64,000 nucleotides of DNA. It comes from Nitrospirota bacterium. Lineage in GTDB: Bacteria; Nitrospirota; Thermodesulfovibrionia; Thermodesulfovibrionales; UBA9159. This document shows, piece by piece, positions 1,492 through 54,933 of the stretch. A program made the translations under genes and the position numbers. The stretch's first letter is position 1; each line of letters begins with the position of its first letter. Location: contig JAMCWJ010000030.1 of the NCBI GenBank assembly GCA_023475105.1, positions 1,743 to 65,742 on the forward strand, written 5' to 3'. The notes under the pieces are model-generated. The model was not told where the DNA came from, did not search any database, and worked only from the letters and a program-made list of their open reading frames with translations.

Positions 1492-4062
1492 TCATTGCGT
1501 GTGTTTTAGCGTGAAATAGAACGTCGCTCCTTTTCCGACCTTGCCTTCGGCCCAGACCCGGCCGCCGTGACGATGGATGATACGCTGCACCGTCGCCAGG
1601 CCTATTCCCGTGCCGGAAAAGTCAGCCGCGTCATGGAGACGCTGGAACGGCCTGAACAGCTTGTCCGCAAAGGCCATATCAAAGCCGGCCCCATTGTCCC
1701 GCACAAAATAAACGGGTCGTCCATCGACCCGGCTTGCGCCGAACTCTATACGGGACTTCCCGCTCTTCCCGGTAAATTTCCACGCGTTGCCGAGCAGGTT
1801 TTGGAGCGTGGCGTACAAGAGCCTTTCATCGCCCTCTGCAAAAAGCCCCTCGGATATCACAAACTCCGCTTCTCTTTCCGGCTGGGTCTCTTGAAGCACT
1901 CTCGCAACATCACGGGCGACAGCGCTCAGATTTACCGGCTCATGCGTCAATTCGGAGCGCGAAATACGGGAGAGCATGAGGAGACCGTCTATGAGAAGGC
2001 CCATACGCTGACTTGCGGCACGGATTCGCCGCAGAGAGTCTCTCCCGTTCTCGTCCAGTTTGTCGCTGTAATCTTCGAGAAGTTCCTGGCTGAAGCCGTC
2101 AATGCTCCGGAGCGGTGACCGCAGATCGTGTGAAACAGAATAGCTGAATGCCTCGATCTCTTTGTTCGCGGAGGAGAGCTCTTCGATGTTTCGCCTCAAT
2201 TGCTCATTGAGAGACATTATCCTCTCCTCGGCTTTCTTGCGCTCCGTAATATCGTGAGCGACATGCACGGAACCGATCATCTGCCCCTGCCTACCGCGCA
2301 GGGGAGTCGTGCTGACAAGAAAGCAGCCGCCGAGGTTGCTCTCATGGATTTCTTCGAAATGCTGACTGCCGTCGCATATGGTTCGGGAGTGAGGACAGAA
2401 CGGCGGCGGTCCCGACAACCCGTGTACGTATTGATAACAGGGCAGTCCGACACACTCTTCGACCTTCAGCCCAAAACGTAGGGCCATCGCTTCGTTTACC
2501 CGCATTATCCGGTGCCGGTTGTCGATGATCGCAATCATATCAGGCACACTGTCGAAGGTAAGCTCCCATTCCTCTTTGGCCCGTATGAGCGATTCCTCCG
2601 CACGTTTCCGCGCCATAGCCGTAGCCACCAGGTCCGTGACCGCTTTCATCAGCTCGACTTCCTCGTGACTGAAGTGCGCGCGGTTGCGTGTCCCGAAAGA
2701 GAGCGTGCCGATCGTCCTCCCCTGGTAGATCAGGGGATGGCAGGCATAGGCTTGTATGCCGAAGGAGCGGACGAGGACGGTCCGATCATCGGGAGTGTTG
2801 GGGATATCTTCAGCGATAATCCTGCAGCCGTCTCTGGCGACGCACCCGCAGACCGCCACCCCGAAATCGAGCCATTCGATTTCCTTTGCAGTCTCCTCGG
2901 GGACCCCCGCAGAGGCATTCAGCCGCATGCGTTGCCGGCCTTCCTGCACCAGGTAATTGAAGAAGGCATCGCAGTCGAGATGATGCATCACTTTTTCGCA
3001 AATCGTCCGGACGATCCTTTCCGGCGTCTCGCTTGTCAGGAGCAGCCGTGCGGATTCGGCGAGGAGTTCCAGCGTAACGTTGCTCCTCCGCAGCGCCTCT
3101 TCCCCCTGCTTGCGCCCGGTAATGTCGCTCACCGTCATTGCGAAATAGCCCTTGTGCGGACTGAAGGCCGAGACCGAATACCACCGTTCGAGCGATTCTG
3201 AATAGCTCTCGAAATGCAGAGGCGTTCCGGTCATCGCAACGTTCCCGTATTTTCCGATCCAGTCCGTCGGGTCATTCTCGATTCCAGGAAGAACCTCCGT
3301 GGCCCTTTTGCCGATCACAGTTTTTCCGTTAAGGGCGGTCAGTCTTTCGAATGCCTTATTGACTTCGAGGAAGATGTAATCGCAGGGCTTTCCCCCGGCA
3401 TCGAGCACCACTCTGTGATAGGCAAACCCTTCCGACATGTTGCTGAAAAGAGATTGGAGCTTTTCCTCACTCCTCTTCAGCGCATCCTTGACTGTCCGCG
3501 CCTCCGAGCTCTCGATCACCTCCCACCTGCCTGCATTCCGGACAAGGGCAAACCGGTGGTTCTTGACGACCTCCATGAGCCCTATCGCATCGAAGTCGTC
3601 CCGGGGGTAGGCAAAGACAGCGATCGCGTTGTATCTGCTCACCGCATCAGTCACGTACGTGGAAAAGGCTTTCCCGTCCTCCCTTTCAGGGATGGCGTTG
3701 CACGCGAGCCTCAAGCCGTCAAAACCGCGGGCGGCCGCGTTGTCGACCTTCGAGATGACCGCCCTGCCGGACTTCCCGCCGCCGGTTGGCCACAGTCCGG
3801 CAGGGATTATCTCCATCTGGTCCCTTTTTGCATAGTCATCAAAATGCGGAACGGCTTTCCGCAGCGCCTTCTCCGCATCATCGGAACTGAGGTTCTCCGG
3901 GGTGACCCAGACGCAAAGCTCGTTGTTTTCGAGCCCCGCCCTGAAGTAGGGGACAAGTATATCAAGCAGATCCTTCTTTGTCTGATAGAATTGGCAGAAA
4001 TGGCTGCCCCAGGGCAGATCATCAATGAACGAGATGCCGGATTTCCGTTTATCGAAGTGCAT
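1492..4062 (-). CDS. sensor histidine kinase, MEDS-PAS-GAF-PAS-HisKA-HATPase architecture
   Basis: N-terminus DDLPWGSHFCQFYQTKKDLLDILVPYFRAGLENNELCVWV (MEDS-type). H-box FSYSVSHDLRSPLRSI. C-terminal VRDNGAGFD...GTGIGLATVQRIIHRHGGRVWAE (G1/G2 boxes). Confidence 0.9.
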   Translation of the reverse strand: MHFDKRKSGISFIDDLPWGSHFCQFYQTKKDLLDILVPYFRAGLENNELCVWVTPENLSSDDAEKALRKAVPHFDDYAKRDQMEIIPAGLWPTGGGKSGRAVISKVDNAAARGFDGLRLACNAIPEREDGKAFSTYVTDAVSRYNAIAVFAYPRDDFDAIGLMEVVKNHRFALVRNAGRWEVIESSEARTVKDALKRSEEKLQSLFSNMSEGFAYHRVVLDAGGKPCDYIFLEVNKAFERLTALNGKTVIGKRATEVLPGIENDPTDWIGKYGNVAMTGTPLHFESYSESLERWYSVSAFSPHKGYFAMTVSDITGRKQGEEALRRSNVTLELLAESARLLLTSETPERIVRTICEKVMHHLDCDAFFNYLVQEGRQRMRLNASAGVPEETAKEIEWLDFGVAVCGCVARDGCRIIAEDIPNTPDDRTVLVRSFGIQAYACHPLIYQGRTIGTLSFGTRNRAHFSHEEVELMKAVTDLVATAMARKRAEESLIRAKEEWELTFDSVPDMIAIIDNRHRIMRVNEAMALRFGLKVEECVGLPCYQYVHGLSGPPPFCPHSRTICDGSQHFEEIHESNLGGCFLVSTTPLRGRQGQMIGSVHVAHDITERKKAEERIMSLNEQLRRNIEELSSANKEIEAFSYSVSHDLRSPLRSIDGFSQELLEDYSDKLDENGRDSLRRIRAASQRMGLLIDGLLMLSRISRSELTHEPVNLSAVARDVARVLQETQPEREAEFVISEGLFAEGDERLLYATLQNLLGNAWKFTGKSGKSRIEFGASRVDGRPVYFVRDNGAGFDMAFADKLFRPFQRLHDAADFSGTGIGLATVQRIIHRHGGRVWAEGKVGKGATFYFTLKHTQ

Positions 4063-4117
4063 ATGTCCGTGTCTCCGCCGCGCTAAAAATTGCGGTCATG
4101 CGTCGCGCGATAACAAT

Positions 4118-4738
4118 CTATGAAGCACGGCCGTGGCCGATGCCCGGCATGCTGACGATCTGCCACGTGCCGCGGTTCATGGCAAGAGCGAACTCGTGGT
4201 TCTTTACGACGTCCATGATCTCGACGACGCCGCACTTCTTGAGCGAGTATGTGCAGAGCACCAGCAGCCTGTAGCCGCCTATGACGTTGTTTATCTCCGC
4301 CTCGTAGCAGGCGAAATCGTCCCAGTCCTTCTTGTTGTCGATCCAGTAGGGATTGCCGCTCACTCTCATCCCTGCGAACCCTTTTGACAATGCCTCATCG
4401 TGTTTTTCCTTCCACATGTCAAGCGTCCTCGTAAGGTCGAATTTTCCGCCCTTGAGATACCAGTCGGTGTAAGGGAATATTTCTATCTGCTTTTTCGCCA
4501 GGTATTCCGGGAAGCGAGGCACACCCTTTTTCATAGCCCGCAAGGCGTGCTCTTCGGTAACGAAGTCCGAGGTGACCCATACGCAGAGCTCGTCGCTCTC
4601 GAGCCCCGCCCTGAAGTAAGGGACAAGGACGTCGAGTAAATCCTTCTTCGTGCGGTAGAACTGACAGAAGTGGCTGCCCCAGGGCAGGCCTCCGATCAAA
4701 GCTATGCCCGAATTCCTTTTCTGCGCGTCCGGTTCCAC
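4118..4738 (-). CDS. stand-alone MEDS-domain protein (paralog of the kinase N-terminus)
   Basis: GGLPWGSHFCQFYRTKKDLLDVLVPYFRAGLESDELCVWVTS is near-identical to the kinase N-terminus. I chose the GTG start at 4738, 8 nt after AAGGAGG. The listed ORF extends to 4864. Confidence 0.8.
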   Translation of the reverse strand: MEPDAQKRNSGIALIGGLPWGSHFCQFYRTKKDLLDVLVPYFRAGLESDELCVWVTSDFVTEEHALRAMKKGVPRFPEYLAKKQIEIFPYTDWYLKGGKFDLTRTLDMWKEKHDEALSKGFAGMRVSGNPYWIDNKKDWDDFACYEAEINNVIGGYRLLVLCTYSLKKCGVVEIMDVVKNHEFALAMNRGTWQIVSMPGIGHGRAS

Positions 4739-5037
4739 CTTGCACACCTCCTTCTCTTTTCCGCATTCCCGGGAAGCTGTCCCGTGAAACACGGGGGAAC
4801 CTCCCGCTAGCCCGCTGCCTGTGCGCTGAATCCTCACTCGCACCGAGGCTTCGGAACGATGCAAACAGCTTACCGTATAGACTTTTTTATAGCATACGGC
4901 TCGTTATCAGTGCAAGACCTTCTGTCTGCTTTTGCGGATTAAGCTTAAAAGACTCGACGCGTGAATGTCTTTGGGCTCTATTCCGGATATAATATAAATC
5001 AGAAACCAGAGAGATATTCGATGAGAGGCATTGCGCA

Positions 5038-8187: not shown

Positions 8188-8357
8188 AAATAGATACCTC
8201 GCAGCTCTGCTGCGGGGTAGTTCATTAGGCATCGTTTTCTTTCCATGGTATTCTGTGGGAAAAGGATAAAGGTCATTTCGGCAAAATGAGCGAGGCTCTT
8301 CCCTCATACGCCGTTCCTGAGTCTTCTGCCCGCTCGCATGAAAGGAGGAAATGTATT

Positions 8358-10764
8358 ATGGATCAATTCACGACCGAAACGTCGTCTGGAGCCGGAGGAG
8401 AAAATCAGCTTTCGGCTGATGAACTCCGGAAGATGGACGCCTACTGGCGCGCATGCAATTATCTCTCGCTCGGGATGTTGTATCTGAAGGACAATCCACT
8501 GCTGCGAGAGCCGCTCAGGGTGGAGCACCTCAAGAAGCGCTTTGTCGGGCATTGGGGGTCAGATGCCGGCCAGAGTTTCATCTGGGTGCACCTGAACCGT
8601 CTGATCAAGAAATACGACCTGAACGTGCTGTACATTTCCGGCCCGGGACATGGCGCCCCCGCGACACTCGCCAACTGCTACCTCGAAGGTACGTATTCAG
8701 AGGTCTACCCCGACATGTTCGGGGATGCGGAAGGCATGCGAAAGTTCTTCAAACAGTTTTCATTCCCGGGCGGCATCGGAAGCCACTGCACGCCTGAAAC
8801 TCCGGGCTCGATCCACGAAGGCGGCGAGCTTGGCTACAGCGTGTCGCACGCATTCGGCGCAGCCTTCGACAATCCGGACCTGATCGTCGCCGCGGTCGTG
8901 GGGGACGGCGAAGCGGAAACCGGTCCCCTGATGGGCTCACTGAATTCGAACAAATTCCTTAACCCGGTCCGTGACGGCGCGGTGCTGCCTATTCTCCATC
9001 TGAACGGTTATAAGATCGTCGAATCCGACGATTCTCGCGCGCATCTCCCCGGAAGAGCTGCAGAGTCTCTTCTTCGGTTTCGGGTGGACCCCCTATCTCG
9101 TGGAGGGTGAAGACCCGCAGTTCATGCACCGGAAAATGGCGGCTGCGCTCGAGACCTGCATAATGCAGATCAGGTCCGCCCAGGAAGAATGCCGCCGGAG
9201 CGGGGTCGCGAAACGTCCGCGCTGGCCCATGATCATCCTCCGCTCTCCGAAGGGCTGGACCGGGCCAAGGGAGATCGACGGGCATAAGCAGGAGGGCTTC
9301 TGGCGGTCTCATCAGATACCGATCCCCGACGTGGCCGACAACCCCCCCCACCTGAGGATCCTCGAAGACTGGATGAGGAGCTACAGACCGGAAGAACTGT
9401 TCGATCAGAACGGTGCGTTGGTCCCGGAGCTCAGGGAACTGGCTCCGACGGGAAGCAGGCGTATGAGCGCCAACCCGCACACCAACGGCGGCTCGCTGCG
9501 GAAACCCCTGCGCCTACCGGATTTCCGGGAATACGCAGTTCCTGTCTCCGAGCCGGGAAAATCCGAAGTCCAGCCGACATTCGTCCTCGGTCAATTCCTG
9601 CGGGACGTCATGCGGGAAAACATGACGAACTTCCGCGTCTTCGGGCCTGATGAGACGGCCTCGAATCGTCTTCAGGAGATTTACCGGGCCAGCAAGAAGA
9701 CATGGATGGCCGGGTTCAGACCCGAGGACTCCGATGGGGGCGAACTCTCGACGGACGGCCGTGTGATGGAGATGCTCAGCGAACACACCCTGGAAGGCTG
9801 GGCGGAAGGCTACGTGCTGACCGGTCGTCATGCCTTCTTCTCTTCGTATGAGGCATTCGTGCATATCATAGATTCCATGTTCAACCAGCATGCAAAGTGG
9901 CTCGAAAAGTGCAAGACCGAGGTCGAATGGCGCGTGCCGGTCTCCTCTCTGAATTTCCTGATCACCTCTACGGTCTGGCGCCAGGACCACAACGGCTTCA
10001 CCCACCAGGACCCCGGGTTCCTCGATGTGGTGACGAACAAGAGCGCACTCGTGACGCGCATCTATCTGCCTCCCGATGCGAACTGCCTGCTCAGCGTGGC
10101 GGACCATTGTCTGCGGAGCGTCGGTTATGTGAACGTCATCGTCGCCGACAAGATGCCTCACCTTCAGTATCTTGACATGAACCGCGCCATTTCACACTGT
10201 GGAAAGGGGATCGGCATCTGGGACTGGGCGAGCAGCGACCAGGGAGGAGAGCCTGATGTGATTATGGCGAGCGCCGGCGATATCCCCACGATGGAAGCCC
10301 TTGCGGCTACCGCAATCCTCCGCGAAAAATTCCCGGACCTGAAGCTCCGCTTCGTCAACGTCGTCGATCTCTTCAAACTGCAGCCGGCGACCGAACACCC
10401 CCATGGGCTTGCGGACCGCGACTTCGATTCCCTGTTTACGGCCGACAAGCCGGTCATTTTCAACTTCCACGGGTACCCCTGGTTGATCCACAAACTGGCC
10501 TACCGCCGCACCAATCATGCCAATATGCATGTACGCGGCTACAAGGAGAAGGGGAATATAAACACGCCTCTGGAACTGGCTATCCGGAACCAGGTCGACA
10601 GGTTCAATCTTTCGATCGATGTTATCGACCGTGTTCCTGCGCTGCAGAAATCGGGGGCCCACGTAAAGGACTGGCTGAAGGACCGGATCATCGAGCACCT
10701 CTCTTACGCTCACGAGCACGGGGTCGACAGGCCGGAGATTCAGGATTGGAAATGGCCGTATTAG
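8358..10764 (+). CDS. xfp: xylulose-5-phosphate/fructose-6-phosphate phosphoketolase, interrupted by a +1 frameshift near 9018-9022
   Basis: [24 protein letters not shown]...[11 protein letters not shown]...[10 protein letters not shown]. The frame changes after LNGYKI: the next frame reads [32 protein letters not shown] and continues to 10764. RBS AAAGGAGGA precedes ATG 8358. Confidence 0.9.
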
Positions 10765-42152: not shown

Positions 42153-43076
42153 TTAATCATTTTTTGGTTCGGGCGAAGAGCAGAGGGATGTCCTGCCTAT
42201 CAAGACAGAAGTTCTTGAATGTGTCAGGATGTTTCTTGAAACACTTCCCATTGCGCGCTGGATTCCACTCAAGCCCCGGCAACCGACCACTATTATGTCC
42301 GTTTGCATTGCCTCGGATATTCTCAATATTTCCTTCGAGGGATCTCCATCCGCCGACAAAACATGTATCCCATCGAAACGTCTTTTCAGATGTTCTCGAG
42401 CCTCTTCAATAATCCTTTCAGAGTTCTCGCGCTCAGCCGCTCTTCCTCGCTCCGCCACCTCTCTGAACTTTTCCCCTATGAGCGGAATATGTTTAAGGAG
42501 TATATCGGACATTGCGGGCCAGATCACGTTCACAACTGTCATGTCCGTGTTTGCCGAAAAAGGCATTTCAGATAAAAAGTTAGCAGCCGCAAGAGAATGG
42601 GCAGAGCCGTCGGTAGCAAAAAGGATTCTAAGATTCCTCAATTTACTACACCCGGGAGGTTTAGAGATGAGGACAGGTCTTGACGCATCCAGAGCCACAG
42701 CATTTGTCACACTTCCGATGAACAATGATTCAATGCCCTTGATCCCTCTTGCCCCCATGGCAATCAGGTCGACGTCGGCAGCAGCTGCCGCATCGACTAT
42801 GCATTGCTCAGGGAGGCCTTCCTTTACCAAAGTGCTAATTCTTGCGCCAAGAGGTTTAACAATCCCCAGGGCGGCGTCAATTACCCTCGTCGCGATTTCT
42901 TTCTTTTTCTGGTTGATGGTATCTATATAAGACTTCGCATCTATATAATCATGGGGTATCCAAAACAGAGCATGCAAAACAATGATTTCGTCATCGGAAG
43001 ACAAATTCAGGCATGACAGTAATCTGGCCGCCAACGCCGAGTATTCAGATCCGTCAGTCGCAAGCAATATTTTCAA
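42153..43076 (-). CDS. tandem-domain universal stress protein
   Basis: MKILLATDGSEYS...DLIAMGARG...; the second domain has ILFATDGSAHS...IIVVGCRGLSG. Confidence 0.9.
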   Translation of the reverse strand: MKILLATDGSEYSALAARLLSCLNLSSDDEIIVLHALFWIPHDYIDAKSYIDTINQKKKEIATRVIDAALGIVKPLGARISTLVKEGLPEQCIVDAAAAADVDLIAMGARGIKGIESLFIGSVTNAVALDASRPVLISKPPGCSKLRNLRILFATDGSAHSLAAANFLSEMPFSANTDMTVVNVIWPAMSDILLKHIPLIGEKFREVAERGRAAERENSERIIEEAREHLKRRFDGIHVLSADGDPSKEILRISEAMQTDIIVVGCRGLSGIQRAMGSVSRNILTHSRTSVLIGRTSLCSSPEPKND

Positions 43077-43292: not shown

Positions 43293-44168
43293 CTAATTGA
43301 TTATGTTTGGATATAGCTTTGCGGCCAACGTGATAAGTAATGCAAAAATAGCCAGCAGCACAGCAAAATCGGAGACCAATCCGAATATGCTCTGTCCCCC
43401 CTCAATCATAGCGCTTCTGATCGCATCTATTTGATAGGTAAGGGGGTTCATCCTGGAGATGGTGCGCAACCAGGATGGCATAAGGCTTAATGGATAAATG
43501 GCATTACTGGTGAAAAAAAGCGGCATGGTCAATACCTGACCGATTCCCATGAAACGTTCCCGCGTCTTGACAATGCACGCTGCTATCAGGGAAAATGTCG
43601 CAAAGATCGCAGATCCCGTCATAACGGCCAGGAGAACCGTTGCAGTATTACTGAGACCAAGACGCAGATGAACGCCGAGTAGAAGAGCAAGAACGTAGAC
43701 GATGACGGCTTGTGACAAGCCTCTGACGCCTGCAGAAAGCGCTCTGCCCAGCACTAAAGCGTAGCGGGAAGCAGGGCTGACCAGAAATTTTTGTAAAATC
43801 CCAAGGTCGCGTTCCCATATGACCGATATGCCATAGAATATGGCGATAAAGAGAACACTCTGAGCTAAAATCCCCGGCGCGATGAAATCGAGATAGGGAA
43901 CTCCTCCTGTCGGAATTACATGCGCGTGGGCGAATACCTGGCCGAAGACCAGCAGCCACAATACTGGTTGCGTCATCCTCGTCAGCAGCTCAAGGGGATC
44001 GTGACTCAGCTTGCGGATATCGGTTTCAGCAACCGCGAAAGTCTGCCGCCAAAAATCCGCTAAACGATCCACATTATTCCACGCGCTCCGCCGTGTGGCG
44101 GGTTCTTGCGGCATCTCTGTAATCTCCTCTTTCTTCGATCGACGTCCCCGTGCATTGAATGAAAACAT
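43293..44168 (-). CDS. ABC-2 type transporter permease
   Basis: Six hydrophobic helices. DIRKLSHDPLELLTRMTQPVLWLLVFG is typical of ABC-2/DrrB-like permeases. The start may instead be 44114 (MPQEP). Confidence 0.85.
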   Translation of the reverse strand: MFSFNARGRRSKKEEITEMPQEPATRRSAWNNVDRLADFWRQTFAVAETDIRKLSHDPLELLTRMTQPVLWLLVFGQVFAHAHVIPTGGVPYLDFIAPGILAQSVLFIAIFYGISVIWERDLGILQKFLVSPASRYALVLGRALSAGVRGLSQAVIVYVLALLLGVHLRLGLSNTATVLLAVMTGSAIFATFSLIAACIVKTRERFMGIGQVLTMPLFFTSNAIYPLSLMPSWLRTISRMNPLTYQIDAIRSAMIEGGQSIFGLVSDFAVLLAIFALLITLAAKLYPNIIN

Positions 44169-44948
44169 CGTCCAGAGTTGCCTCAGCTCCCAGGGTACTC
44201 TTGAGTCTGGCCGGAGAATCCAGTGCCACTATGCGACTCTGGTGCATAAATGCGACATTCTCGCAGAGCCTGTCAGCTTCCTCCATATCGTGAGTTGTCA
44301 TGAAAATAGTGGTCCCGAATTCCTGACGCAGATTGCGGATGCGCTGCCATACTGAGTGCTTAGCGACGGGATCGAGTCCGACAGTCGGCTCGTCAAGGAA
44401 AAGCACCGCCGGCCGGTGCAACATGGCCTGGGCGACTTCCAATCGCCTGATCATCCCCCCCGAATAATGGCTCACCAGTCTGGAGGCAACGTGAGAGAGT
44501 TCCATGAAATCAAGGGCTTGTCTTATAACTTTCTTTCTTTCCATGCGTGAGATTCCATACAACTTTGCCGAGATCAGGAGATTTTCGTAGCCTGTCAATT
44601 CTCCGTCGGCTGAGAGCATCTGTGAAACATAGCCAATATTTCGCCTGACTTCCCGCGCCTGCCGGAGATATCAAAACCGGCCACTCGTGCGGTACCAATA
44701 GTCGGTCTCAGCAAAGTTGTCAACATCTTGATAGTAGTGCTTTTCCCCGCTCCATTTGTCCCCAGTAAACCGAATATCGAACCGGCAGCAATCGTTACAT
44801 TCAGATCATCCACGGCGAGCAAAGAACCGAAACGGCGTGAGAGACCGAAGGTTTCGACGGAAATGACGTCTGCCGGCAAGATGTGGCTTTGATTCGCTGA
44901 CTTGTCGGAGGAATTCACTTGCACATCTTGCCGATCAAAACAGAGCAT
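44074..44948 (-). CDS. ABC transporter ATP-binding protein (DrrA-like), interrupted by a frameshift near 44650-44668
   Basis: The N-terminal part carries Walker A GTNGAGKSTTIKML..VAGFDISGRR. The next frame reads AREVRRNIGYVSQMLSADGELTGYENL...SGGMIRRLEVAQAML...LFLDEPTVGLD. Confidence 0.85.
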
Positions 44949-45811
44949 TTCGCATGGGTAAGCACGTTTCTCGATACGCTCCCCATTATTCCCTTGAGCC
45001 CTCTCAGGCCTCTGCAGCCGACTGCTATGATATCGCTCTTGAGTGTCTCAGATACTCTCAATATTTCCGTTGAAGGGTCTCCGACTTCGGAGAGGACTTC
45101 TATTTTCTTGAATCTCTTGCTCAGATGTTCCCGGGCCAGCTCGGCGACACGTTCAGAATTCCTGAATTCCATTTCGCGTTCCCGAGCCTCGATCTCCATA
45201 ATGTGTTCATTTATTCCAGGATGCAAGACCTCCGGAATATTCAAGGAAAATGGCGCCGAGATCACGTTAAGGATCGCTATTTCGGTATTGTCCGGAAAAG
45301 GAAGTTCGGATAGGAATGCCCCGGTATCGGCTGCGCTATCAGATCCGTCGGTAGCAAAAAGTATTTTAAGCCGAACCGGACTGCCGCACCCGGGCCGTTT
45401 TATGACCAAAACCGGTTTCGATGAATTATGGGCGACTGATCTCGTCACGCTCCCGATGAAGAGCGATTTTATCCCCTTGATGCCCCTTGCACCCATGACG
45501 ATCAAATCCATACCGGATGAGTCGGCCGCCTCAACAATGCATTGTTCGGGAGTGTCTTCTTCAATAGCGGTGCTTATCTTCGCCTTCGCTGACTTCAGAA
45601 TAGCAAAAGCAGTATCAAGGATCTTTGGTGCTATTTCCCGCTTAATTTCTTTCAGCGTTTCGTAATAATATTCCCTTTCGTAGTAAAGTGGATACCAGTG
45701 TATGACATGAAAAACAGTAATTTCGTCATCGGGTGATAAATTCAGACATGACAAAAATCGGGTTGCCAACTCTGAGTATTCCGAGCCGTCTGTGGCAAGT
45801 AAAATTTTCAT
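44915..45811 (-). CDS. tandem-domain universal stress protein (paralog of 42153..43076)
   Basis: MKILLATDGSEYSELATRFLSCLNLSPDDEITVFH...DLIVMGARG...ILFATDGSDS...IIAVGCRGLRG. Confidence 0.9.
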   Translation of the reverse strand: MKILLATDGSEYSELATRFLSCLNLSPDDEITVFHVIHWYPLYYEREYYYETLKEIKREIAPKILDTAFAILKSAKAKISTAIEEDTPEQCIVEAADSSGMDLIVMGARGIKGIKSLFIGSVTRSVAHNSSKPVLVIKRPGCGSPVRLKILFATDGSDSAADTGAFLSELPFPDNTEIAILNVISAPFSLNIPEVLHPGINEHIMEIEAREREMEFRNSERVAELAREHLSKRFKKIEVLSEVGDPSTEILRVSETLKSDIIAVGCRGLRGLKGIMGSVSRNVLTHAKCSVLIGKMCK

Positions 45812-45901
45812 AAGAATCAATCCCTGTTAAGAGAAACATAGCACCTATCGGATCGAAATGCAAATACCTCCGGAAAAAAGTGCGGAAAGCAAACTCACTT
45901 C

Positions 45902-46737: not shown

Positions 46738-47553
46738 TCATGGGGAACTCCGGTCTCTCAGGTTGCGGACGATTTCCGCGCCGACCAGGAAGATGGTCGA
46801 CGAATAAAATACCCAGAGGAGAAGGATGACGAATGTCGAGAGGGACCCGTAGATGGCGCCGTACCGGCCCGCAGCGGTGACGACGTAGAGGGTAAAGGGG
46901 TGTCTCGCGACTTCGAGGAAGACCGCCGTGAAAAGGCCTCCCCCAAAGGCATGGCTCAGCAATACCTTCTTCAGGGGCAGGAATTTGTACAGGGCGGTCG
47001 TGATGAAGAGAACGAGGAATACCGGTATGACGAACTGCACGAAGGAGGCGGTTATCCCGCTGATCTTCAGCGAGGGGAAGACCTCCAGAAGCGACTGGAG
47101 CATCCGTACCGCCGATGTCGCCGCGAAGGACATGACGATCAGCGCGGCGATCAGGGTCACGATAAGAAAGGAAGAGACGACCGACGTGAGCAGCGGCTGT
47201 CTCTTTTTCTGCCGGAAAATGACACGGGTCGCCTCTTCCAGGGCCATGTAGAATTGATAGGAAAAGTAGGCATAAATGACGAACGTGACTATGCCGATCT
47301 TTCTGTACGAAATCAGGGAGGTCAGCTGTTTCGTGATTTCCGGGACCGCGGCAGGAAAAAACATGGCCAGCCGGGCCGAAAAGAAATGGTAGAAACCTCC
47401 GCTTTCCCCGAGAAAATATCCGAAGATCGCGACGAGCATGAGGCTGAAGGGAATGAATGACATAAGGAAGAAATAGGCGACGGCCCCTGCAAGGAGCGGA
47501 CCGCCGTCCCTGAAAAAGTCAATGAAGCTCCTGAAAATCAATTTCACGGCCAT
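46738..47553 (-). CDS. YihY/BrkB family membrane protein
   Basis: FFRDGGPLLAGAVAYFFLMSFIPF...YGAIYGSLSTFVILLLWVFYSSTIFLVGAEI. Confidence 0.85.
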   Translation of the reverse strand: MAVKLIFRSFIDFFRDGGPLLAGAVAYFFLMSFIPFSLMLVAIFGYFLGESGGFYHFFSARLAMFFPAAVPEITKQLTSLISYRKIGIVTFVIYAYFSYQFYMALEEATRVIFRQKKRQPLLTSVVSSFLIVTLIAALIVMSFAATSAVRMLQSLLEVFPSLKISGITASFVQFVIPVFLVLFITTALYKFLPLKKVLLSHAFGGGLFTAVFLEVARHPFTLYVVTAAGRYGAIYGSLSTFVILLLWVFYSSTIFLVGAEIVRNLRDRSSP

Positions 47554-47720
47554 TCTCCGTCTGCTGGTTTTTCTCTTTCCTTTATATCATAAAACAAGAG
47601 CGTAAGAAAACCGGGAAAGGGAATGGTGTCGCTGCAAAAGGATGGCGACGTAGTTGTCGTTGTCGGCTTTTCTTGATTTTGCCCATTCGCCTTTGCTATT
47701 ATACACGCTGTTTTTTTAAC

Positions 47721-49711
47721 ATGGACCCTGAAACGTTTCTCTATATAGGCGTCGGTTGTTTTCTTCTCGGAGCGGTTCTGCCCCTGCCTCCGCTCCGGAA
47801 GATCACAAGTCTGTGCTATATCCTCCCGGCGGCCGGCGCCCTCAATCTCCTGGTCTACGGGCTCCTTCTCATATTCTTTCCTCCTGCGACCGTCGGTTCT
47901 TTTCCTATCTCGTCTGTTTTTGAGTTCCTCTTCTCAGGAGATGCGATATCCGGATTCTTTGTCGTCGTGATTTCGGTCCTGACCTTCAGTGCGTCGTTAT
48001 TTTCCATTGGGTATACCGGCGAAATGAAGAACCAGGGTCTGATGGGCTTTCTCTTCAGCCTTTTTGTCCTGAGCATGCTGGCGGTCGTAACAGCCGGCAA
48101 TATCATTACGTTCCTCATATCCTGGGAGACGATGTCCCTCATCTCCTATTTTCTTGTGACGATTGACAGAGACAAAGAGTCTGAAAAGGCGGGCCTCGTC
48201 TATGCAGTGATGACGCACATCGGGACAGCTTTCATAATTTGCTCTTTTCTTCTCCTTTACTCATATACGGGGCGGATGGATTTCTCCGGGATGAAGGATG
48301 CCGCGGAGCAGATACCCCTCGAAATAAAATCGCTCGTCTTCATTTTTTCGGTAATCGGCTTTGGTACCAAGGCAGGGATAATCCCGCTCCATACATGGCT
48401 TCCGAGGGCGCATCCCGCGGCCCCGTCCAACGTTTCCGCCCTGATGTCCGGGGTTATGATAAAAACGGGGATTTACGGCCTTGTGAGGATAGCCGTGGAC
48501 CTGCTGGGACCCGGCCCTGAGTGGTGGGGAATTGCAGTGCTTGTGATCGGCGCGGTCTCTTCAGTCCTTGGAGTGCTTTACGCATTAATGGAACATGACA
48601 TAAAGAGACTTCTGGCTTACCACAGCGTCGAAAACATCGGCATTATCCTTCTTGGTATCGGAGCCGCCATGATGTTCAGGAGCAGCGGCCTGTATAATCT
48701 GGCGGCCATAGCGCTCATTGCAGGGTTCTATCACACGCTCAATCACGCTGTTTTTAAAGGGCTCCTGTTTCTCGGCGCGGGTTCGGTGATGCATTCAACG
48801 CATAGAAAGAACATGGATGAAATGGGGGGCTGATAAAGACAATGCCCTGGACCGGGTTGTTCTTTCTTATAGGCTCGGTTTCGATCTGCGCACTGCCTCC
48901 TTTTAACGGGTTTGTGAGCGAGTGGCTGACCTTCCAATCGCTTCTCCTCGGTTTCTCATCTCCCTCCATAACTTCAAAAATAGTATCGCCGCTTGGCGGG
49001 GCCGCGCTGGCGCTCACCGGCGCGCTCGCTGCCGCATGTTTCGTCAAGGCGTTCGGCATATCATTCCTCGGGACGGCAAGAAGTCATCATGCTGAGAAAG
49101 CAAGAGAGGCGTCTCCCTCGATGATAGCGGGCATGGCTGTTTTGGCCCTCCTCTGTCTCCTTCTCGGCCTGTTTCCGGGCCCGGTGGTGACGCTGCTTTC
49201 ACCCGCCGCGTATATTCTTGCCGGCGCCGACGGCACGATCTCTTCAGGCGCGTTCCTTTATATCGGCGAAACCGCTGCGGGCATTTCTCCGGCCCTCATA
49301 CTGATTGCGATTGTGATAATGTCTGTGGCTACACTTGCCTTTATCCTTACGGTGGGCGGAAGGAGAAAATTGACTTACGGGGCTTCCTGGGACTGCGGTG
49401 TCCCGGCGCTGACTCCGAGGATGCAATATACTGCAACGGCCTTTACGAAACCCGTCCGGATGATATTCAAGAAAATTTACCTGCCGCGAAGGGAATTGAA
49501 GGTCTCCTACATACTGAAACCTTTCTTTGTAAGGTCCATAAAATACAGCGGCGAGATAACCCCCTTTTTTGAAAGGTTCTTCTACGAGCCGGCTACGGCC
49601 CTTATTTACAAGATAGCTGAGAGAGTGAGACCTCTCCAGTCGGGAAGTCTCCATCTTTATCTCGGATACATGCTGATAACCCTGATACTCCTTCTCATAT
49701 TCGGGAGCTGA
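47721..49711 (+). CDS. NuoL/HyfB/HycC-like antiporter-type subunit, split by a 1-nt frameshift at a G6 run (48824-48829)
   Basis: ISWETMSLISYFLV...GTKAGIIPLHTWLPRAHPAAPSNVSALMSGVMIKTGIYG...LLAYHSVENIG..., ending ..NMDEMGG*. One frame over, LIKTMPWTGLFFLIGSVSICALPPFNGFVSEW continues colinearly. Confidence 0.85.
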
Positions 49712-49712
49712 A

Positions 49713-50630
49713 ATGGAATATCTTCAATTTATTGTCATCATAATTTTCTCTCCTCTCATTCAGGGGATAATCAAGAAGGTGAAGGCCGCGATGCAGGGCA
49801 GGGTGGGGCCGGGCGTCTTCCAGCCCTATTATGATCTCGTGAGGCTTCTGAAAAAGGAGATGGTGATATCCGGTGTCACTTCCTGGGTGTTCAGGGCCAC
49901 CCCCTTTATCGTCTTCGCTTCGACCGTTGCCGCAGCAATGATTATCCCTGTGATCACGACGAGGTCTCCCTTCAGTGCGATGGGCGACGTCATCGCGCTC
50001 ATCTATATTTTCGCCCTGGGCAGATTTTTCATGGCCCTGGCCGGCCTCGACGCGGGGACCGCTTTCGGCGGTGAGGGCAGCAGCAGGGAGATGGCGGTGG
50101 CGATGCTCGTGGAACCGATGATGATGCTGAGCATATTCACGGCGGCGATAGCCGCCGGTTCGACGAACATCGCCGTGATTGCGGAAAAGCAGGACATATT
50201 CTATTCGCCTTCGCACGTCCTCGCCCTGTCCGCCTTCATCGTGGCGGTCGTCGCGGAGACGGGCAGGATTCCCGTCGATAACCCCGATACGCATCTGGAG
50301 CTGACGATGATCCACGAGGGAATGCTCCTCGAGTATTCCGGGAGGTACCTGGCTCTTATGGAATGGGCCCACTTTATGAAGCAGATGCTCCTGTTTACGC
50401 TCGCCGTCGACATCTTCTTTCCTCTCGGCATACCGGCCGCCACGGGCCTGCCGGGGCTTGCGGCGTCCTTCGGCATCTATTCCCTGAAGATGGTCCTGAT
50501 GGCGGTCCTGATGGCGGCAATTGAATCGTCAAGGGCGAAGCTGCGGTTTTTTCAGCTCCCTTCCCTCCTGGGAGGGGCCTTTGTCCTGGCCCTGCTTTCG
50601 CTCCTGACCTACATTATGATGGGGAAATGA
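49713..50630 (+). CDS. NuoH/HyfC/HycD-like membrane subunit
   Basis: KAAMQGRVGPGVFQPYYDLVRLLKKE...AETGRIPVDNPDTHLELTMIHEGMLLEYSGR. Confidence 0.85.
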   Translation: MEYLQFIVIIIFSPLIQGIIKKVKAAMQGRVGPGVFQPYYDLVRLLKKEMVISGVTSWVFRATPFIVFASTVAAAMIIPVITTRSPFSAMGDVIALIYIFALGRFFMALAGLDAGTAFGGEGSSREMAVAMLVEPMMMLSIFTAAIAAGSTNIAVIAEKQDIFYSPSHVLALSAFIVAVVAETGRIPVDNPDTHLELTMIHEGMLLEYSGRYLALMEWAHFMKQMLLFTLAVDIFFPLGIPAATGLPGLAASFGIYSLKMVLMAVLMAAIESSRAKLRFFQLPSLLGGAFVLALLSLLTYIMMGK

Positions 50631-50739: not shown

Positions 50740-51399
50740 TTGAAGAACTGGATACAGGCATTTTCGGTGATCGATTTCATATCCGTGGGGATACTGCTCA
50801 CCGCGGTCTCGATGAACGCCCTCAAGAGACTTGAGTCGTGCGTGAAGGTGTACACGCTGAATTCCTGGCTCCTGGCGTCTCTGATCGCAATCGTGTCATT
50901 TATGATCGGGGAGGCTCACCTCTATGTTGCCGCCGCGCTGACATTGACGACAAAGGGCGTTCTCCTCCCTGTTTTTCTCAAGAGGATCGTGAGACAGATG
51001 AAGGTGACCCGGGACGACGAGCCGTACATCAACAATGCCCTCTCCCTTACCATCTCCGGGGTCCTTGTGGCGGTAGTTTATGTATCGCTGGGGGAGGGGA
51101 TATTCGTTTCGGGTTTCTCAAGGAATGTGCTGCAGATCTCCATTGCGGTGATCGTCATAGGGCTGTTCACGATGATCACCCGCAGGAAAGCAATAACACA
51201 AGTGATCGGGCTGCTTTTTATGGAAAACGGCCTCTTCTTGGCCGGATTTTCTCTCACATTCGGCATGCCGCTAATCATAGAGCTTGGGGTCTTGTTCGAC
51301 ATGCTTATGGGAGTGATCATACTGGGAATATTTGTCGTACAGATTAAGAGGTCCTTTCTTTCTACGGACCTCGACAAGCTGACGACCCTGAGAGGTTGA
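50740..51399 (+). CDS. HyfE-like (NuoK-related) membrane subunit
   Basis: A 219-aa polytopic protein positioned as hyfE. ...VIGLLFMENGLFLAGFSLTFGMPLIIELGVLFDMLMGV. TTG start is uncertain. Confidence 0.75.
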   Translation: MKNWIQAFSVIDFISVGILLTAVSMNALKRLESCVKVYTLNSWLLASLIAIVSFMIGEAHLYVAAALTLTTKGVLLPVFLKRIVRQMKVTRDDEPYINNALSLTISGVLVAVVYVSLGEGIFVSGFSRNVLQISIAVIVIGLFTMITRRKAITQVIGLLFMENGLFLAGFSLTFGMPLIIELGVLFDMLMGVIILGIFVVQIKRSFLSTDLDKLTTLRG

Positions 51400-52859
51400 A
51401 GATGATCGGCGTATTACTGCTTATTCCCGTTGTTACCGCCCTGCTGTGCTCATTCTTCAGGAACAGGAAGACGATCGAAGTTATCAACGTTATCGGGGTC
51501 ATCGCCCTGACGGCGGTCTCCGTCCCACAGATCACAGGCGCTCTTTCGGCGCAGGAATATTTCATGGGAGGCGTCCTGTTTATGGATGCCCTTTCCGCCT
51601 ATATCATGGCAATCGTTGTATTTATCGCCCTTGTTGCCGCAATCTATTCAGTAGATTATATGGGACAGGAATATAAAGAGGGAGCGGTGACCTTAAAGGG
51701 GCTGCGTTATTATTATGCCCTATTTCATCTCTTCATATTCACCATGCTCCTTGTTTCCGTATCGAACAACCTCGCGGTATTCTGGATAGCGATAGAAGGA
51801 ACAACACTCGTCTCGGCGCTCCTTGTCGGTTTCTACAAGAACAGGCAATCTATCGAAGCGGCATGGAAGTACATTATTCTTTGTACGGTGGGAATCACCT
51901 TTGCACTGCTGGGGATATTCATTACCTATTACGCCTCGGCTGGAGCAACGGGGGGAAAGGGCACACTGAACTGGACGGAACTGAGAGAAATGTCACACAG
52001 GCTTAACCCATCGACGATGAAGCTGGCGTTCATCCTAATACTTATCGGTTACGGTACAAAGGCCGGGCTCGCGCCGGTCCATAACTGGCTCCCGGACGCC
52101 CACAGCCAGGCTCCGACGCCGATAAGCGCTCTCCTTTCGAGTATTCTGCTTAAATGTGCCTTTATCGGGATTGTGAGGTTTGCTATTATTCTCAACGGTT
52201 CTGCCGGCTCTTCATACGCCGGCAACCTCCTCCTGATATTCGGTTTATTGTCCATGGGGATTGCTACTGCATTTATCCTTCTTCAAAACAATTATAAGAG
52301 GCTGCTTGCCTATCACAGCATTGAACATATAGGGATCATAGCCACCGGGATGGGGCTAGGCGGGCCTCTCGGCATTTACGGTTCCCTGCTGCATATCCTC
52401 AACCATGCTATTGTGAAAGCCTTGCTCTTTTTTACCACCGGCCAGGTAAGGCTAAGGTACTTTTCTACGAAAATTGACAAAGTCAGGGGCGTGATAACCC
52501 TTCTGCCGGTTTCGGGGGCCGTCATGCTGCTCGCGGCGCTCGCCATTGCGGGCACGCCTCCATTTAACATTTTTCTGAGCGAGTTTATCATCCTTAAGGC
52601 CGCAGCCGAAGGCGGAAGCTGGGTAACATTCACTCTTTTCCTGGTATTCGCGACGATTATTTTCGGTGGTGTCCTGCATCACTTCGGCGGTATGGCTTTC
52701 GGGGAACCCAACGTCAGCCACGAGATGAAAGGAGAGCGTAAACTGGTAAGTATTTTGATTGTTGTCATGGCAACCGGCATGCTCTTGCTGGGGGTTTATG
52801 TACCTTCGTTTCTTGAGCTGATGCTCTCCGGTTCTCTCAAGGTCATCACGGGGGGATGA
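51396..52859 (+). CDS. NuoN/NuoM/HyfF-like antiporter-type subunit
   Basis: FWIAIEGTTLVSALLV...GYGTKAGLAPVHNWLPDAHSQAPTPISALLS...LLAYHSIEHIG. The start overlaps the upstream stop. Confidence 0.85.
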   Translation: MKMIGVLLLIPVVTALLCSFFRNRKTIEVINVIGVIALTAVSVPQITGALSAQEYFMGGVLFMDALSAYIMAIVVFIALVAAIYSVDYMGQEYKEGAVTLKGLRYYYALFHLFIFTMLLVSVSNNLAVFWIAIEGTTLVSALLVGFYKNRQSIEAAWKYIILCTVGITFALLGIFITYYASAGATGGKGTLNWTELREMSHRLNPSTMKLAFILILIGYGTKAGLAPVHNWLPDAHSQAPTPISALLSSILLKCAFIGIVRFAIILNGSAGSSYAGNLLLIFGLLSMGIATAFILLQNNYKRLLAYHSIEHIGIIATGMGLGGPLGIYGSLLHILNHAIVKALLFFTTGQVRLRYFSTKIDKVRGVITLLPVSGAVMLLAALAIAGTPPFNIFLSEFIILKAAAEGGSWVTFTLFLVFATIIFGGVLHHFGGMAFGEPNVSHEMKGERKLVSILIVVMATGMLLLGVYVPSFLELMLSGSLKVITGG

Positions 52860-52862
52860 TGC

Positions 52863-54392
52863 ATGATGAATAATGAGCACTACAGAGAGCTGGGGGGCCG
52901 GGAATTCAGAGATCACTGTATCTCACTTTGCCGAAGCGGTTTCACTCTTCGCCTGATGTTTGCAACCGATGAAAGGGAGAACGAAGGATGTTTCAAAATC
53001 TATGTGGTTTTTTCAGAAACAGGAAAAGACAGTTTTCAGATACCGTTCCTGAAGCTGAAGGGAGACGACCTTTCCTATCATGGCCTGACTCCGGATATTC
53101 CTGCCGTGCACTGGTACGAACGTGAGATTCACGACATGTTCGGCCTCACTCCCGAGGGTCATCCGGACCTCCGAAGGCTTGTTTTCCATGACTCTTTCCC
53201 CGGGGACTCGTACCCTCTCAGGAAGGACTGGAAGATTAGTGAGGCCGAGTTAAGGGAATGGGGCGAGGGGCTGGTCCGGAAGGAACCGTATCATTTCATG
53301 GAAGTGAAGGGAGAGGGCGTCTATGAGATACCCGTGGGGCCCGTTCACGCCGGAATAATCGAGCCGGGGCATTTCAGGTTCAGCGCGGTGGGCGAGACCA
53401 TATTTTTCCTCGAGCCGAGGCTGTTTTATACGCACAAGGGTACGGAGAAGCTTTTCGAGGGGTTCGGGTTCAGTGAAGGTGTCAGGCTTGCTGAAAGGGT
53501 GTCCGGCACATCGTCATTTTCTCACGGCACCGCTTACTGCATGGCGGTGGAGAGGATGTCCGGGACCGATATCCCCGAAAAAGCAAAGGCGATAAGGACA
53601 CTCCTTCTGGAACTTGAGAGGTTGTATAACCATGTTGGGGACATCGGCAATATGTGCGCGGGGACCGGGCTTGCCGTGGGATATGCCGCCGGCGCGCTCA
53701 TCAAAGAAAAGCTCATGCAGCTTAATGAGAGAGTGTCGGGAAGCAGATATCTGAGGGGGGTGAATGTTATCGGAGGGGTGACAAAAGACATATTTCAGTA
53801 CGCCGATGACATCCTGACGACGCTCGAGACAGCGACAGGGGATTACAAGGCGTTCATGAAACTGCTCCTCGGCGCGATCTCGCATGTTGAGCGGCTGGAA
53901 AACGCCGGGCAACTGTCCAGGGAGATCGCGATGAAACTTGGAGTGACAGGCGTGGCTGCAAGGGCCTCCGGGGTAAACGACGACATCAGAAAGGCGCATC
54001 CCCATCTCCTCTACGACAGGCTCGAATTCGAACCGCACACCACGACAAGGGGCGACGTCTTTGCGAGGATGATGGTGAGGGCCGAAGAGGCGGAGTGCTC
54101 CATATCCATGATCCATGCGCTCCTTGAGAGGAATTACGGAAGAGAGCTTGCTGCGGAGGTGAAGGACGTGTCCCCGCATGCCTGCGCCCTAGGGTACACC
54201 GAGTCGCCGAGAGGCTCGCTCTTCTACTGGGTCAAATCGGATGCAGAGGGAAGACCGCTCAGGGTGAAACTGAGGTCGCCGTCCTATTGCAATTGGCCCG
54301 CGGTCCCCTTTGCGGTGCACGGAAACATCGTTCCTGATTTTCCGCTCTGCAACAAGAGCTTCAATCTCTCCTATTCCGGATGCGATATGTGA
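52863..54392 (+). CDS. NuoC-NuoD fusion / HycE-HyfG-like large subunit lacking the [NiFe] cysteine ligands
   Basis: HWYEREIHDMFGL (NuoC part). GPVHAGIIEPGHFRFSAVGE, ESPRGSLFYW (NuoD/large-subunit part). RVSGTSSFSH stands where RxCGxCxxxH is expected. The C-terminus is ..FNLSYSGCDM*. Confidence 0.85.
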   Translation: MMNNEHYRELGGREFRDHCISLCRSGFTLRLMFATDERENEGCFKIYVVFSETGKDSFQIPFLKLKGDDLSYHGLTPDIPAVHWYEREIHDMFGLTPEGHPDLRRLVFHDSFPGDSYPLRKDWKISEAELREWGEGLVRKEPYHFMEVKGEGVYEIPVGPVHAGIIEPGHFRFSAVGETIFFLEPRLFYTHKGTEKLFEGFGFSEGVRLAERVSGTSSFSHGTAYCMAVERMSGTDIPEKAKAIRTLLLELERLYNHVGDIGNMCAGTGLAVGYAAGALIKEKLMQLNERVSGSRYLRGVNVIGGVTKDIFQYADDILTTLETATGDYKAFMKLLLGAISHVERLENAGQLSREIAMKLGVTGVAARASGVNDDIRKAHPHLLYDRLEFEPHTTTRGDVFARMMVRAEEAECSISMIHALLERNYGRELAAEVKDVSPHACALGYTESPRGSLFYWVKSDAEGRPLRVKLRSPSYCNWPAVPFAVHGNIVPDFPLCNKSFNLSYSGCDM

Positions 54393-54402: not shown

Positions 54403-54933
54403 ATGATAAAGGAAATTCTTAAAAACATAACGGGGAAAAAGCAGGCGATCCGGTTTCCCGGGGGGAGTGCCGTATCCCCTGAAGACGCGGCGAAGATCCC
54501 GGCGCTTCAGGAGGGGATGGGGAAGGTTTTCCGCAGGTCCCTCAGGATCCGGCAGGTCGACGGAGGATCGTGCAATGCCTGCGAGTGGGAATGTACGGCG
54601 CTCACGAATCCGGTCTACGATGTCGAGAGGTTTGGCATCGGCTTCGTCGCATCGCCGAGGCACGCGGACGCGCTCCTCGTGACCGGCCCCGTCTCGCGGC
54701 AGATGGAGCTTGCGCTGAGAAAGACCTACCTCGCGACCCCGGAGCCCAGGCTCGTGATCGCCTTGGGCGACTGTGCCGTCGACGGAGGTATTTACAAGGG
54801 GAGCTACGCGGTCACGGACGGGGTCGCGAACGTCATACCTGTGGACTGTTTCATCCCGGGATGTCCGCCTTCCCCGGCGGAGATCATAGCGGGCGTCCTG
54901 CGACTGCTGGAAGAGCTGGCCCGCAGAAAATGA
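54403..54933 (+). CDS. NuoB/HycG-like small subunit with one [4Fe-4S] site
   Basis: RBS GAGGAGG. GGSCNACEWE, ..ALGDCAVDGG.., ..IPGCPPSP supply the four-Cys N2-type cluster pattern. Confidence 0.85.
   Translation: MIKEILKNITGKKQAIRFPGGSAVSPEDAAKIPALQEGMGKVFRRSLRIRQVDGGSCNACEWECTALTNPVYDVERFGIGFVASPRHADALLVTGPVSRQMELALRKTYLATPEPRLVIALGDCAVDGGIYKGSYAVTDGVANVIPVDCFIPGCPPSPAEIIAGVLRLLEELARRK

Follow-up and report, generated by a model that had tools for sequence, protein, structure and literature searches.

Complexes that are related to the group 4 [NiFe] hydrogenases and lack the cysteines of the nickel-iron site were named Ehr in Geobacter and have been surveyed across prokaryotes (PMC3569383, PMC6349859, PMC10284858, PMC7894505, PMC6728331). 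The definition used here follows the founding survey (Marreiros et al., BBA 2013) as far as the papers that cite it relate it. In Geobacter sulfurreducens the complex is encoded by GSU0739-45 (EhrA, EhrC, EhrL, EhrS and others) (PMC7894505), and in M. tuberculosis by Rv0082-87 (PMC6728331). Ehr proteins stand close to the group 4f hydrogenases, lack the CxxC motifs, and 'their function remains unknown' (PMC10284858); in the literature Ehr counts as a non-hydrogenase (PMC6349859, PMC10284858, PMC6728331). A formate dehydrogenase has been suspected as partner (PMC6349859), and in Geobacter the abundance of Ehr subunits is higher with growth on formate (PMC7894505). Here, we describe a locus of this kind in a stretch of 64,000 nucleotides from a Nitrospirota bacterium (assembly GCA_023475105.1, contig JAMCWJ010000030.1), below called the window. 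The gene in question, ehrL, lies at 52863..54392 on the forward strand, and its product is very probably the large subunit (EhrL) of an Ehr complex. The best explanation of the whole locus is that EhrL belongs to a six-subunit Ehr that is probably a nickel-free ion-translocating module and not a hydrogenase.

The gene translates into a 509-residue fused NuoC/NuoD protein of the HycE type. A NuoC-like part (Complex1_30kDa, residues 29-127) precedes the NuoD/HycE-like large subunit, and the further Pfam matches are to Complex1_49kDa and NiFeSe_Hases, the latter a short one across L1. When compared by phmmer with the chains of the PDB, E. coli HycE (7z0s_E) is the top match by far (E 2.9e-83, 33% identity), followed by T. 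thermophilus Nqo4, Aquifex NuoCD and P. furiosus MbhL (MbhL at E 5e-38). The AlphaFold2 model of EhrL, made from an alignment of 36 sequences, has a mean predicted local distance difference test (pLDDT) of 91.8 and a pTM of 0.93. Foldseek superimposes it on HycE 7z0s_E with a template modelling (TM) score of 0.93 and a root mean square deviation of 2.3 Å; many complex I chains match the model as well. The original prediction, made from the DNA letters, had called the protein a homolog of the group 4 large subunits, and both the sequence and the fold comparison agree with this. It had not recognised Ehr as the described class to which the protein belongs.

The metal-ligand motifs can be placed in register. 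The L1 equivalent is RVSGTSSFSH (R212-H221, 53496..53525, forward strand), which pairs as 'rvsgtssfsh' with 'rvcgicgfah' of HycE and 'rmcgicsfsh' of MbhL, so that both cysteines are replaced by serine and the flanking Arg, Gly and His are kept. The L2 equivalent is NLSYSGCDM (N501-M509, 54363..54389, forward strand), directly followed by the stop codon; here 'sfnlsysgc' pairs with 'sldpcysct' of HycE, and the two cysteines are replaced by serine and glycine. Hence EhrL carries neither the group 4 L1 motif R-x-C-G-x-C-x-x-x-H nor the L2 motif [DE]-[PL]-C-x-x-C-x-x-[HR], and it has no C-terminal extension, as the open reading frame (ORF) stops after NLSYSGCDM. Both motifs had been read exactly in the original prediction, which also described the two Cys-to-Ser changes of L1 with the retained neighbours, and its placement of L1 holds up in the alignments with HycE and MbhL, in which no CxxC pair is found elsewhere in register. 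One point needs correction. The number of retained ligands had been put at one at most; the loss is real, and none is retained in register. The four [NiFe] ligand positions are S214, S217, S503 and G506 in EhrL, and Cys507 lies under the Thr that follows the last HycE cysteine, one residue off register. The position of Cys507 is variable among 120 close orthologs (Cys in 98, Thr in 17, Ser in 5), which argues against a role as ligand. Since S214, S217, S503 and G506 replace all metal-binding cysteines, EhrL, as read from its sequence, is not a conventional hydrogenase and cannot bind a canonical Cys-ligated Ni-Fe centre.

The substitutions are a stable property of a family. Orthologs were collected from a search of 5.8 billion proteins, and the best 120 were used for the counts of motifs and alignment columns. 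The NCBI entry with 100% identity is 'MAG: NADH-quinone oxidoreductase subunit C [Nitrospirae bacterium]', and many orthologs are 70-82% identical, those with names coming from metagenome-assembled genomes (MAGs) of Thermodesulfovibrionales or other Nitrospirota. RVSGTSSFSH is unchanged in 101 of the 120 orthologs, which answers the question whether the Ser-Gly-Thr-Ser substitution is kept in related genomes, and NLSYSGCDM in 87. The mean column identity to EhrL is 0.98 in both motif segments compared with 0.74 over the whole protein, so the replacement of the cysteines cannot be put down to chance. Six orthologous genes differ from ehrL with a nonsynonymous divergence (dN) of 0.15-0.29 at saturated synonymous sites (proportion of synonymous differences, pS, 0.70-0.81); because of this saturation against five of the six, a finite dN/dS was obtained for one ortholog only (0.14). 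EhrL is a folded and functional protein under purifying selection, and not a pseudogene product, as the original prediction had argued against random decay; the motif conservation, a dN far below the saturated dS and the confident model all speak for it.

The part of EhrL that is most strictly conserved is the beta1-beta2 loop VGPVHAGIIEPGHFRF (residues 158-173, 53334..53381, forward strand), which is 100% conserved in the 120 orthologs and invariant or nearly so in a further alignment of relatives. The fold signatures that had been named as well conserved, GPVHAGIIEPGHFRF and ESPRGSLFYW, are both present. Within the loop, E167 aligns with E21 of MbhL and is at least 90% conserved in relatives with and without the metal-binding cysteines; MbhL E21 is the proton donor of MBH (PMC7684303). 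The centre of the loop, residues 160-165 (53340-53357), is the sole segment of the model with a pLDDT below 50, and this dip falls on the most strictly conserved sequence of the family. Taken from the model, it would fit a mobile coupling loop that becomes ordered only in the assembled complex.

In order to place the loss of the ligands, 1.84 billion cluster representatives (50% clusters) were searched exhaustively with HMMER, and the closest 150 were inspected for their motifs. They fall into two types, a Cys-type reading 'R.CG.C..SH ... NKSFELCY.C.DR' and a Cys-less type reading 'R.SGD...H ... NKSFNLSYSGNDL', and the nearest representatives of EhrL are a mixture of Cys-type, 4f-like proteins and Cys-less ones. 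Cysteines are found at both L1 positions in 30 of the 125 full-length relatives, and 91 have no Cys at 214 and 503. EhrL shares with the Cys-less group the S...S-Y-S-G replacement pattern and an E-to-N change, and its best single relative is a Cys-type protein (P0121, 48% identity, 515 bits). Positions that are well conserved in both groups and yet different between them are limited to 214, 503, 506 and 473. Another 42 positions carry the same residue in the two groups, with a conservation of at least 90%, among them E167, H191, D374, R376, D492 and D508. The second L1 ligand position varies freely in the Cys-less relatives (S/T/E/N/A), and none of the columns in the 91 Cys-less proteins holds a cysteine in more than 62%. 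The cysteines C226, C265, C412, C476 and C496 are conserved in the clade of EhrL and were considered as a new site; they were set aside, as they do not exceed 62% in the wider Cys-less family, though within this clade alone they might still form one. Because the systematic differences are confined to the ligand positions and residue 473, and no new ligand set is conserved, it seems that the metal site was removed and nothing was built in its place. The 'different active site' that had been suspected in the original prediction is not borne out. Thus, what these alignments suggest is a 4f-like hydrogenase scaffold that is intact and has lost only its metal site. A neighbor-joining tree of the 125 full-length representatives (100 bootstraps) places the clade of EhrL among the Cys-less sequences; its deep nodes have 0% bootstrap support, so that the tree does not tell a single loss of the cysteines from repeated losses. 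As the closest single relative is of the Cys-type, the S-G-T-S clade of the Thermodesulfovibrionales type might have lost the NiFe site independently of the main S-G-D-x Ehr clade.

The gene ehrL is the fifth cistron of a compact cassette on the same strand. The order starts with ehrA, a NuoL/HyfB-like antiporter-like subunit that is interrupted by a frameshift. Its 5' part (47721..48833, Pfam Proton_antipo_M) covers positions 7-376 of the 669 of the NCBIfam hydrogenase-4 subunit B profile and runs into a premature stop, and its 3' part (48842..49711) covers positions 381-666. The ATG at 47721 is also the start called in an independent contig of the Logan assembly. It is followed by ehrB (49713..50630), encoding the NuoH/HyfC-like membrane anchor of the peripheral arm (Pfam NADHdh, E 7.8e-49), by ehrC (~50767..51399, start taken as called in the Logan contig), a HyfE-like small membrane subunit with a NuoK-like C-terminus (NCBIfam HyfE, E 6.9e-27; weak Pfam Oxidored_q2), and by ehrD (~51402..52859), an antiporter-like subunit of the NuoM/N/HyfF type (NCBIfam hydrogenase-4 subunit F, E 2.3e-142). 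After ehrL comes ehrS (54403..54933, Pfam Oxidored_q6), the small subunit of the NuoB/HycG/MbhJ type with four [4Fe-4S] ligands. Beyond this end of the cassette lie scpA, rplI and dnaB. On the upstream side a BrkB-like gene (46738..47553) is divergently oriented, so the operon starts at ehrA; a promoter-like site just 5' of the ehrA start (TTGATT-18-TATTAT with a TG element, 47673..47702, forward strand) comes from a consensus scan and is weak evidence. Between the BrkB-like gene and scpA we find six subunit types and no gene for NuoA, J, I, E, F or G. Likewise, the cassette holds no NuoI/HycF-type ferredoxin subunit, FdhF, NuoEFG or hyp gene, nor, by Pfam, any Fer4 or Mrp B/C/E/G gene, and none of the NuoI/HycF-type, FdhF, NuoEFG, hyp or other hydrogenase-maturation families was matched among 50 larger ORFs spread over ~1.5-59.4 kb of the window. 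Upstream of the operon and close to it, the opposite strand carries two genes for tandem-domain universal stress proteins (Usp; 42153..43076 and 44915..45820, reverse strand), together with genes for a fatty-acid hydroxylase and the BrkB-like membrane protein.

The partner subunits keep the cluster ligands and the charged transport residues. No gap is needed to align EhrS with MbhJ and HycG, and C57-N-A-C60, C124 and C154 are in place. Its spacing is that of the hydrogenases, a CxxC with four cysteines in all, and it is unlike both the adjacent Cys-Cys of complex I NuoB and the shortened three-Cys motif of MBS (PMC7684303). In EhrA, once the frameshift is repaired, and in EhrD we find SWE/IAIE in transmembrane helix 5, GTKAG in helix 7, the Lys of helix 8, HAxxK and the Glu in xFxSEx. 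Such charged Glu and Lys residues are the typical transport residues of the NuoL/M/N antiporter-like subunits. When EhrD is aligned to MbsH/MbhH, the conserved Glu and Lys residues also match, and EhrB retains the NuoH signature AETxRxPxD...E...EYSG. Of 79 related loci, 70 have all four EhrS cluster cysteines, and in the clade of the query these are strictly retained.

The cassette as a unit is widely distributed. A scan of one genome per GTDB species gave at least 600 matched stretches, of which 596 were confirmed by tblastn as relatives. The best 80 loci come from Nitrospirota, Acidobacteriota, Omnitrophota, Rokubacteria, Chloroflexota, Patescibacteria, Actinomycetes, Firmicutes, Methanosarcina, Methanomassiliicoccales and Thaumarchaeota. 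In 84 loci examined, nearly all contigs that cover the cluster show the order A-B-C-D-L-S or S-A-B-C-D-L, and orthologous loci on long contigs share the six genes and have unrelated flanks. When all ORFs within 5 kb of about 80 loci with Ehr matches were clustered all against all, no recurrent redox partner appeared, and in particular no FdhF, Fer4, NuoEFG or Hyp; only generic families emerged (a sigma-54 response regulator, an ArsR-type regulator and an ABC ATPase). The ArsR/SmtB-type helix-turn-helix regulator, the one linked gene of note that recurs, stands directly upstream on the same strand in ~10-13 related loci (e.g. L054, 2848-3228), and there is none at the Ehr locus of the window itself. 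Its position recalls that of Rv0081 upstream of Rv0082-87 in M. tuberculosis. One related Nitrospirota MAG (MFD01716.bin.1.191, locus L007) carries two complete Ehr cassettes in tandem, one orthologous to that of the window (69% identity) and the other of a subtype in which the large subunit ends in NQSYSGNDL.

How might such a complex work? We suggest that Ehr would translocate ions in the manner of complex I. Because there is no NuoI-type subunit, the single EhrS cluster would be reduced directly by a low-potential donor encoded elsewhere (ferredoxin or a formate dehydrogenase module), which would dock at the surface that the missing NuoI leaves open. The electron would then leave to an acceptor in the chamber vacated by the Ni-Fe centre, at the interface of EhrL, EhrS and EhrB. 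The beta1-beta2 loop and EhrB would relay the redox change to the ion channels of EhrA and EhrD. We put this redox-coupled pump forward tentatively, as a mechanism that may or may not hold and with less confidence than the assignment of EhrL. Several observations weigh against the picture of a nickel-free, redox-driven Ehr. Neither the cassette nor its surroundings hold a gene for an electron donor, an acceptor or a NuoI-like relay, and the clustering of the flanks of ~80 loci revealed no recurrent redox partner; the redox half of the mechanism is therefore inference throughout. Furthermore, in 9 of the 79 loci all or most EhrS cluster cysteines are lost and the cassette is still whole, and hence some members of the family seem to work without a redox cofactor. 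The split of ehrA means that the complex may be inactive in this particular genome. Finally, to our knowledge no Ehr complex has been purified, and the cited papers give its function as undetermined.

The nine loci with the degenerate EhrS comprise eight with a Cys-less large subunit, including two from Methanosarcina and several from Patescibacteria, and one with a Cys-type large subunit. They are L019, L022, L031, L043, L071, L074, L075, L084 and also L029, with sequences such as GSTNACE...GDDA...GDPP. Judged from these residues, a redox cofactor would be missing altogether from their peripheral arm.

The explanation that competes best with a redox-driven Ehr is a redox-independent transporter, such as a Mrp-like cation/proton antiporter or a pH-homeostasis module. 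The EhrL/EhrS cap would then serve only as a structural plug or regulator, with a [4Fe-4S] cluster that is structural or senses the redox state. We regard this as doubtful on balance, and it is the rival to be taken most seriously. It would account for the lack of a donor or acceptor module in the cassette and its flanks, and for the nine loci that keep a whole cassette after the loss of the cluster cysteines. The antiporter-like subunits are closest to Mrp/MBH/MBS-type subunits, too. Moreover, a Methylocystis cluster labelled 'group 4f' is among the most strongly induced genes at pH 5, and the same preprint quotes a catalytic-subunit motif '...AARVS' and does not discuss cysteines (10.1101/2025.08.29.672306); from its letters, this motif looks Cys-less. 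Against a mere antiporter speaks the retention of the four EhrS cysteines, strict in the clade of the query and found in the large majority of all loci. In addition, the proton-relay Glu and the beta1-beta2 loop, which serve redox coupling in MBH and complex I, form the most conserved part of EhrL, and the abundance of Ehr in Geobacter responds to the electron donor that is supplied (PMC7894505). A related view keeps the pump and gives up catalysis in the large subunit. In this case Ehr would be a conformational ion pump of the complex I type, either a pump or antiporter gated by the redox state of the single [4Fe-4S] cluster, or, in the lineages where the cluster is lost, a machine without any cofactor. 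We consider this unlikely. If it were true, a catalysis-free Ehr would be a natural 'minimal coupling module' of the NuoB/D/H-antiporter core, without quinone or H2 chemistry.

The name given by NCBI implies instead that the protein is the NuoCD subunit of a reduced complex I that reduces menaquinone at the canonical site. The matches to the NCBIfam NuoD and the Pfam Complex1_49kDa and Complex1_30kDa models and the many complex I chains of similar fold point in this direction. However, the NCBIfam NuoD and NuoCD models all score below their curated cut-offs (NF004739, 234 vs 360 bits; TIGR01962, 195 vs 459), and the best match in sequence and in fold is HycE. Both ligands of the quinone head group are missing, since the phmmer alignment to 2fug_4 places I166 at His38 of Nqo4 and G215 at Tyr87, though in an alignment based on structure His38 could come to lie one residue away, at E167. 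The CxxC of EhrS differs from the Cys-Cys of NuoB (PMC7684303), and the cassette lacks NuoA, J, I, E, F and G. We therefore regard a quinone-reducing NuoCD as improbable.

A sulfane-sulfur reductase of the MBS/Mbx type, in which the proximal [4Fe-4S] cluster reduces polysulfide in the chamber, appears similarly improbable. Thermodesulfovibrionales-like Nitrospirota are linked to sulfur metabolism, which counts for such an enzyme. MBS also provides a precedent, as its large subunit is devoid of NiFe and the proximal cluster does the catalysis (PMC7684303). Yet MbsL still has two of the cysteines, whereas EhrL has none, and the four cysteines of EhrS, gap-free to MbhJ, stand against a three-Cys cluster in MBS. 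The equivalent of E21, kept in EhrL, is absent from MBS, and MbsN and the Mrp module are absent here (PMC7684303).

A decaying pseudogene or relic operon without function would be suggested by the state of ehrA. The gene is split into ORFs of 370/386 and 289 codons by a -1 frameshift in a G6 homopolymer (48824..48829, forward strand), and at least two other genes of the window are split as well. The addition of one base restores an ORF of 663 codons reading MGGLIKTMPWTG; the orthologs are intact, 661-663 residues long, and read MGGLIKSMP. The Logan assembly of SRR10267473 (L004) is identical in 11415 of 11415 positions, G6 included, and as the same G6 stands in an independent assembly, the frameshift is in the reads or results from a systematic error of the chemistry. 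It is a matter of a single base in a G run, either very recent or a sequencing artefact. The other split genes of the window call for caution before ehrA is called a real pseudogene. Since ehrL is intact, gives a high-confidence model, accumulates few nonsynonymous changes against saturated synonymous sites and has substituted motifs of higher conservation than the remaining sequence, a relic without function is very improbable.

The other two split genes were noted in passing. A phosphoketolase (XFP) gene is divided into overlapping ORFs at 8286..9110 and 9100..10764 (forward strand), which match XFP_N positions 3-206 and then 233-363; a C5 run at ~9090-9094 beside the junction marks a second frameshift in the window. 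A gene for an ABC-transporter ATPase is divided into overlapping ORFs at 44595..44948 and 44074..44619 (reverse strand), for which the Logan contig calls only a truncated product of 117 residues. Three split genes in 64 kb suggest either error-prone data or a genome that is gaining frameshifts. At the other end of the window, a MEDS-GAF-PAS histidine kinase (856 residues) adjoins a stand-alone MEDS-domain protein (248 residues; together 1492..4864, reverse strand). MEDS is a putative sensory domain for hydrocarbons or methyl compounds.

That EhrL is still a hydrogenase with a non-cysteinyl or relocated metal site is scarcely credible, despite the retained Glu167, Arg450 of ESPRG, H221 and D508, since we know of no [NiFe] hydrogenase without four Cys or selenocysteine, the Cys-less relatives share no conserved cysteine, their second L1 position is free to vary, and Ehr is not regarded as a hydrogenase in the literature cited at the outset.

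We thus return to EhrL as the large subunit of a six-subunit, nickel-free Ehr. The family is very widespread in bacterial and archaeal phyla and has been recognised since the work on Geobacter. For biochemists, three comparative results should be of use, namely that the differences to the 4f-like proteins are confined to the ligands, that the cluster of the small subunit is usually retained and sometimes lost, and that no partner gene is linked. The public names of the EhrL protein are 'NADH-quinone oxidoreductase subunit C', 'formate hydrogenlyase' and 'Ni,Fe-hydrogenase III large subunit', and metabolic reconstructions built on them would arrive, wrongly, at complex I or H2 metabolism.

A comparison with the described systems places the locus among its relatives. 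Complex I NuoD/NuoCD is like EhrL in its fold, in having lost the four NiFe cysteines and in the coupling element, the beta1-beta2 loop; it differs in the quinone ligands discussed above, in the cysteine motif of NuoB and in having 11-14 subunits against six. The P. furiosus MBS resembles Ehr as a pump of the complex I kind that lacks a NiFe site in its large subunit, and shows that the proximal cluster and the chamber can take other chemistry (PMC7684303). In contrast to EhrL, which keeps none of the four cysteines and has E167, MbsL keeps two of four and has no E21 equivalent (PMC7684303). MBS also differs in the three-Cys cluster of MbsJ and in MbsN with its two [4Fe-4S] clusters and the Mrp module, all absent in the Ehr cassette (PMC7684303). 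HycE/HyfG of group 4a (7z0s) offers the best solved structure, with a fused NuoC-NuoD and membrane subunits that resemble HyfB, C, E and F. However, EhrL has neither the NiFe site of HycE nor the C-terminal extension that HycE loses by cleavage in maturation; the formate hydrogenlyase complex further contains HycF (two [4Fe-4S] clusters), HycB and FdhF, none of which is encoded in the Ehr cassette. The putative Ehf hydrogenases of group 4f are the nearest sequence relatives, with the same six-gene cassette and a C-terminus without cleavable extension. They differ in that all four cysteines are kept (R.CG.C..SH, ELCY.C.DR), where EhrL has Ser, Ser, Ser and Gly. Closest in composition are the Ehr complexes of Geobacter and M. 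tuberculosis, matched here by description, which have NuoL-, NuoH-, HyfE- and NuoM/N-like, large and small subunits and no NuoI. Most Cys-less representatives read S-G-D-x where EhrL reads S-G-T-S and ends in C-D-M, and the broad Ehr representatives that were sampled are 33-47% identical to EhrL. This level of identity marks it as a member of a distinct Nitrospirota/Thermodesulfovibrionales subclade. The locus does not introduce a new principle; it adds a well-conserved Nitrospirota subclade to the known and widespread Ehr family.

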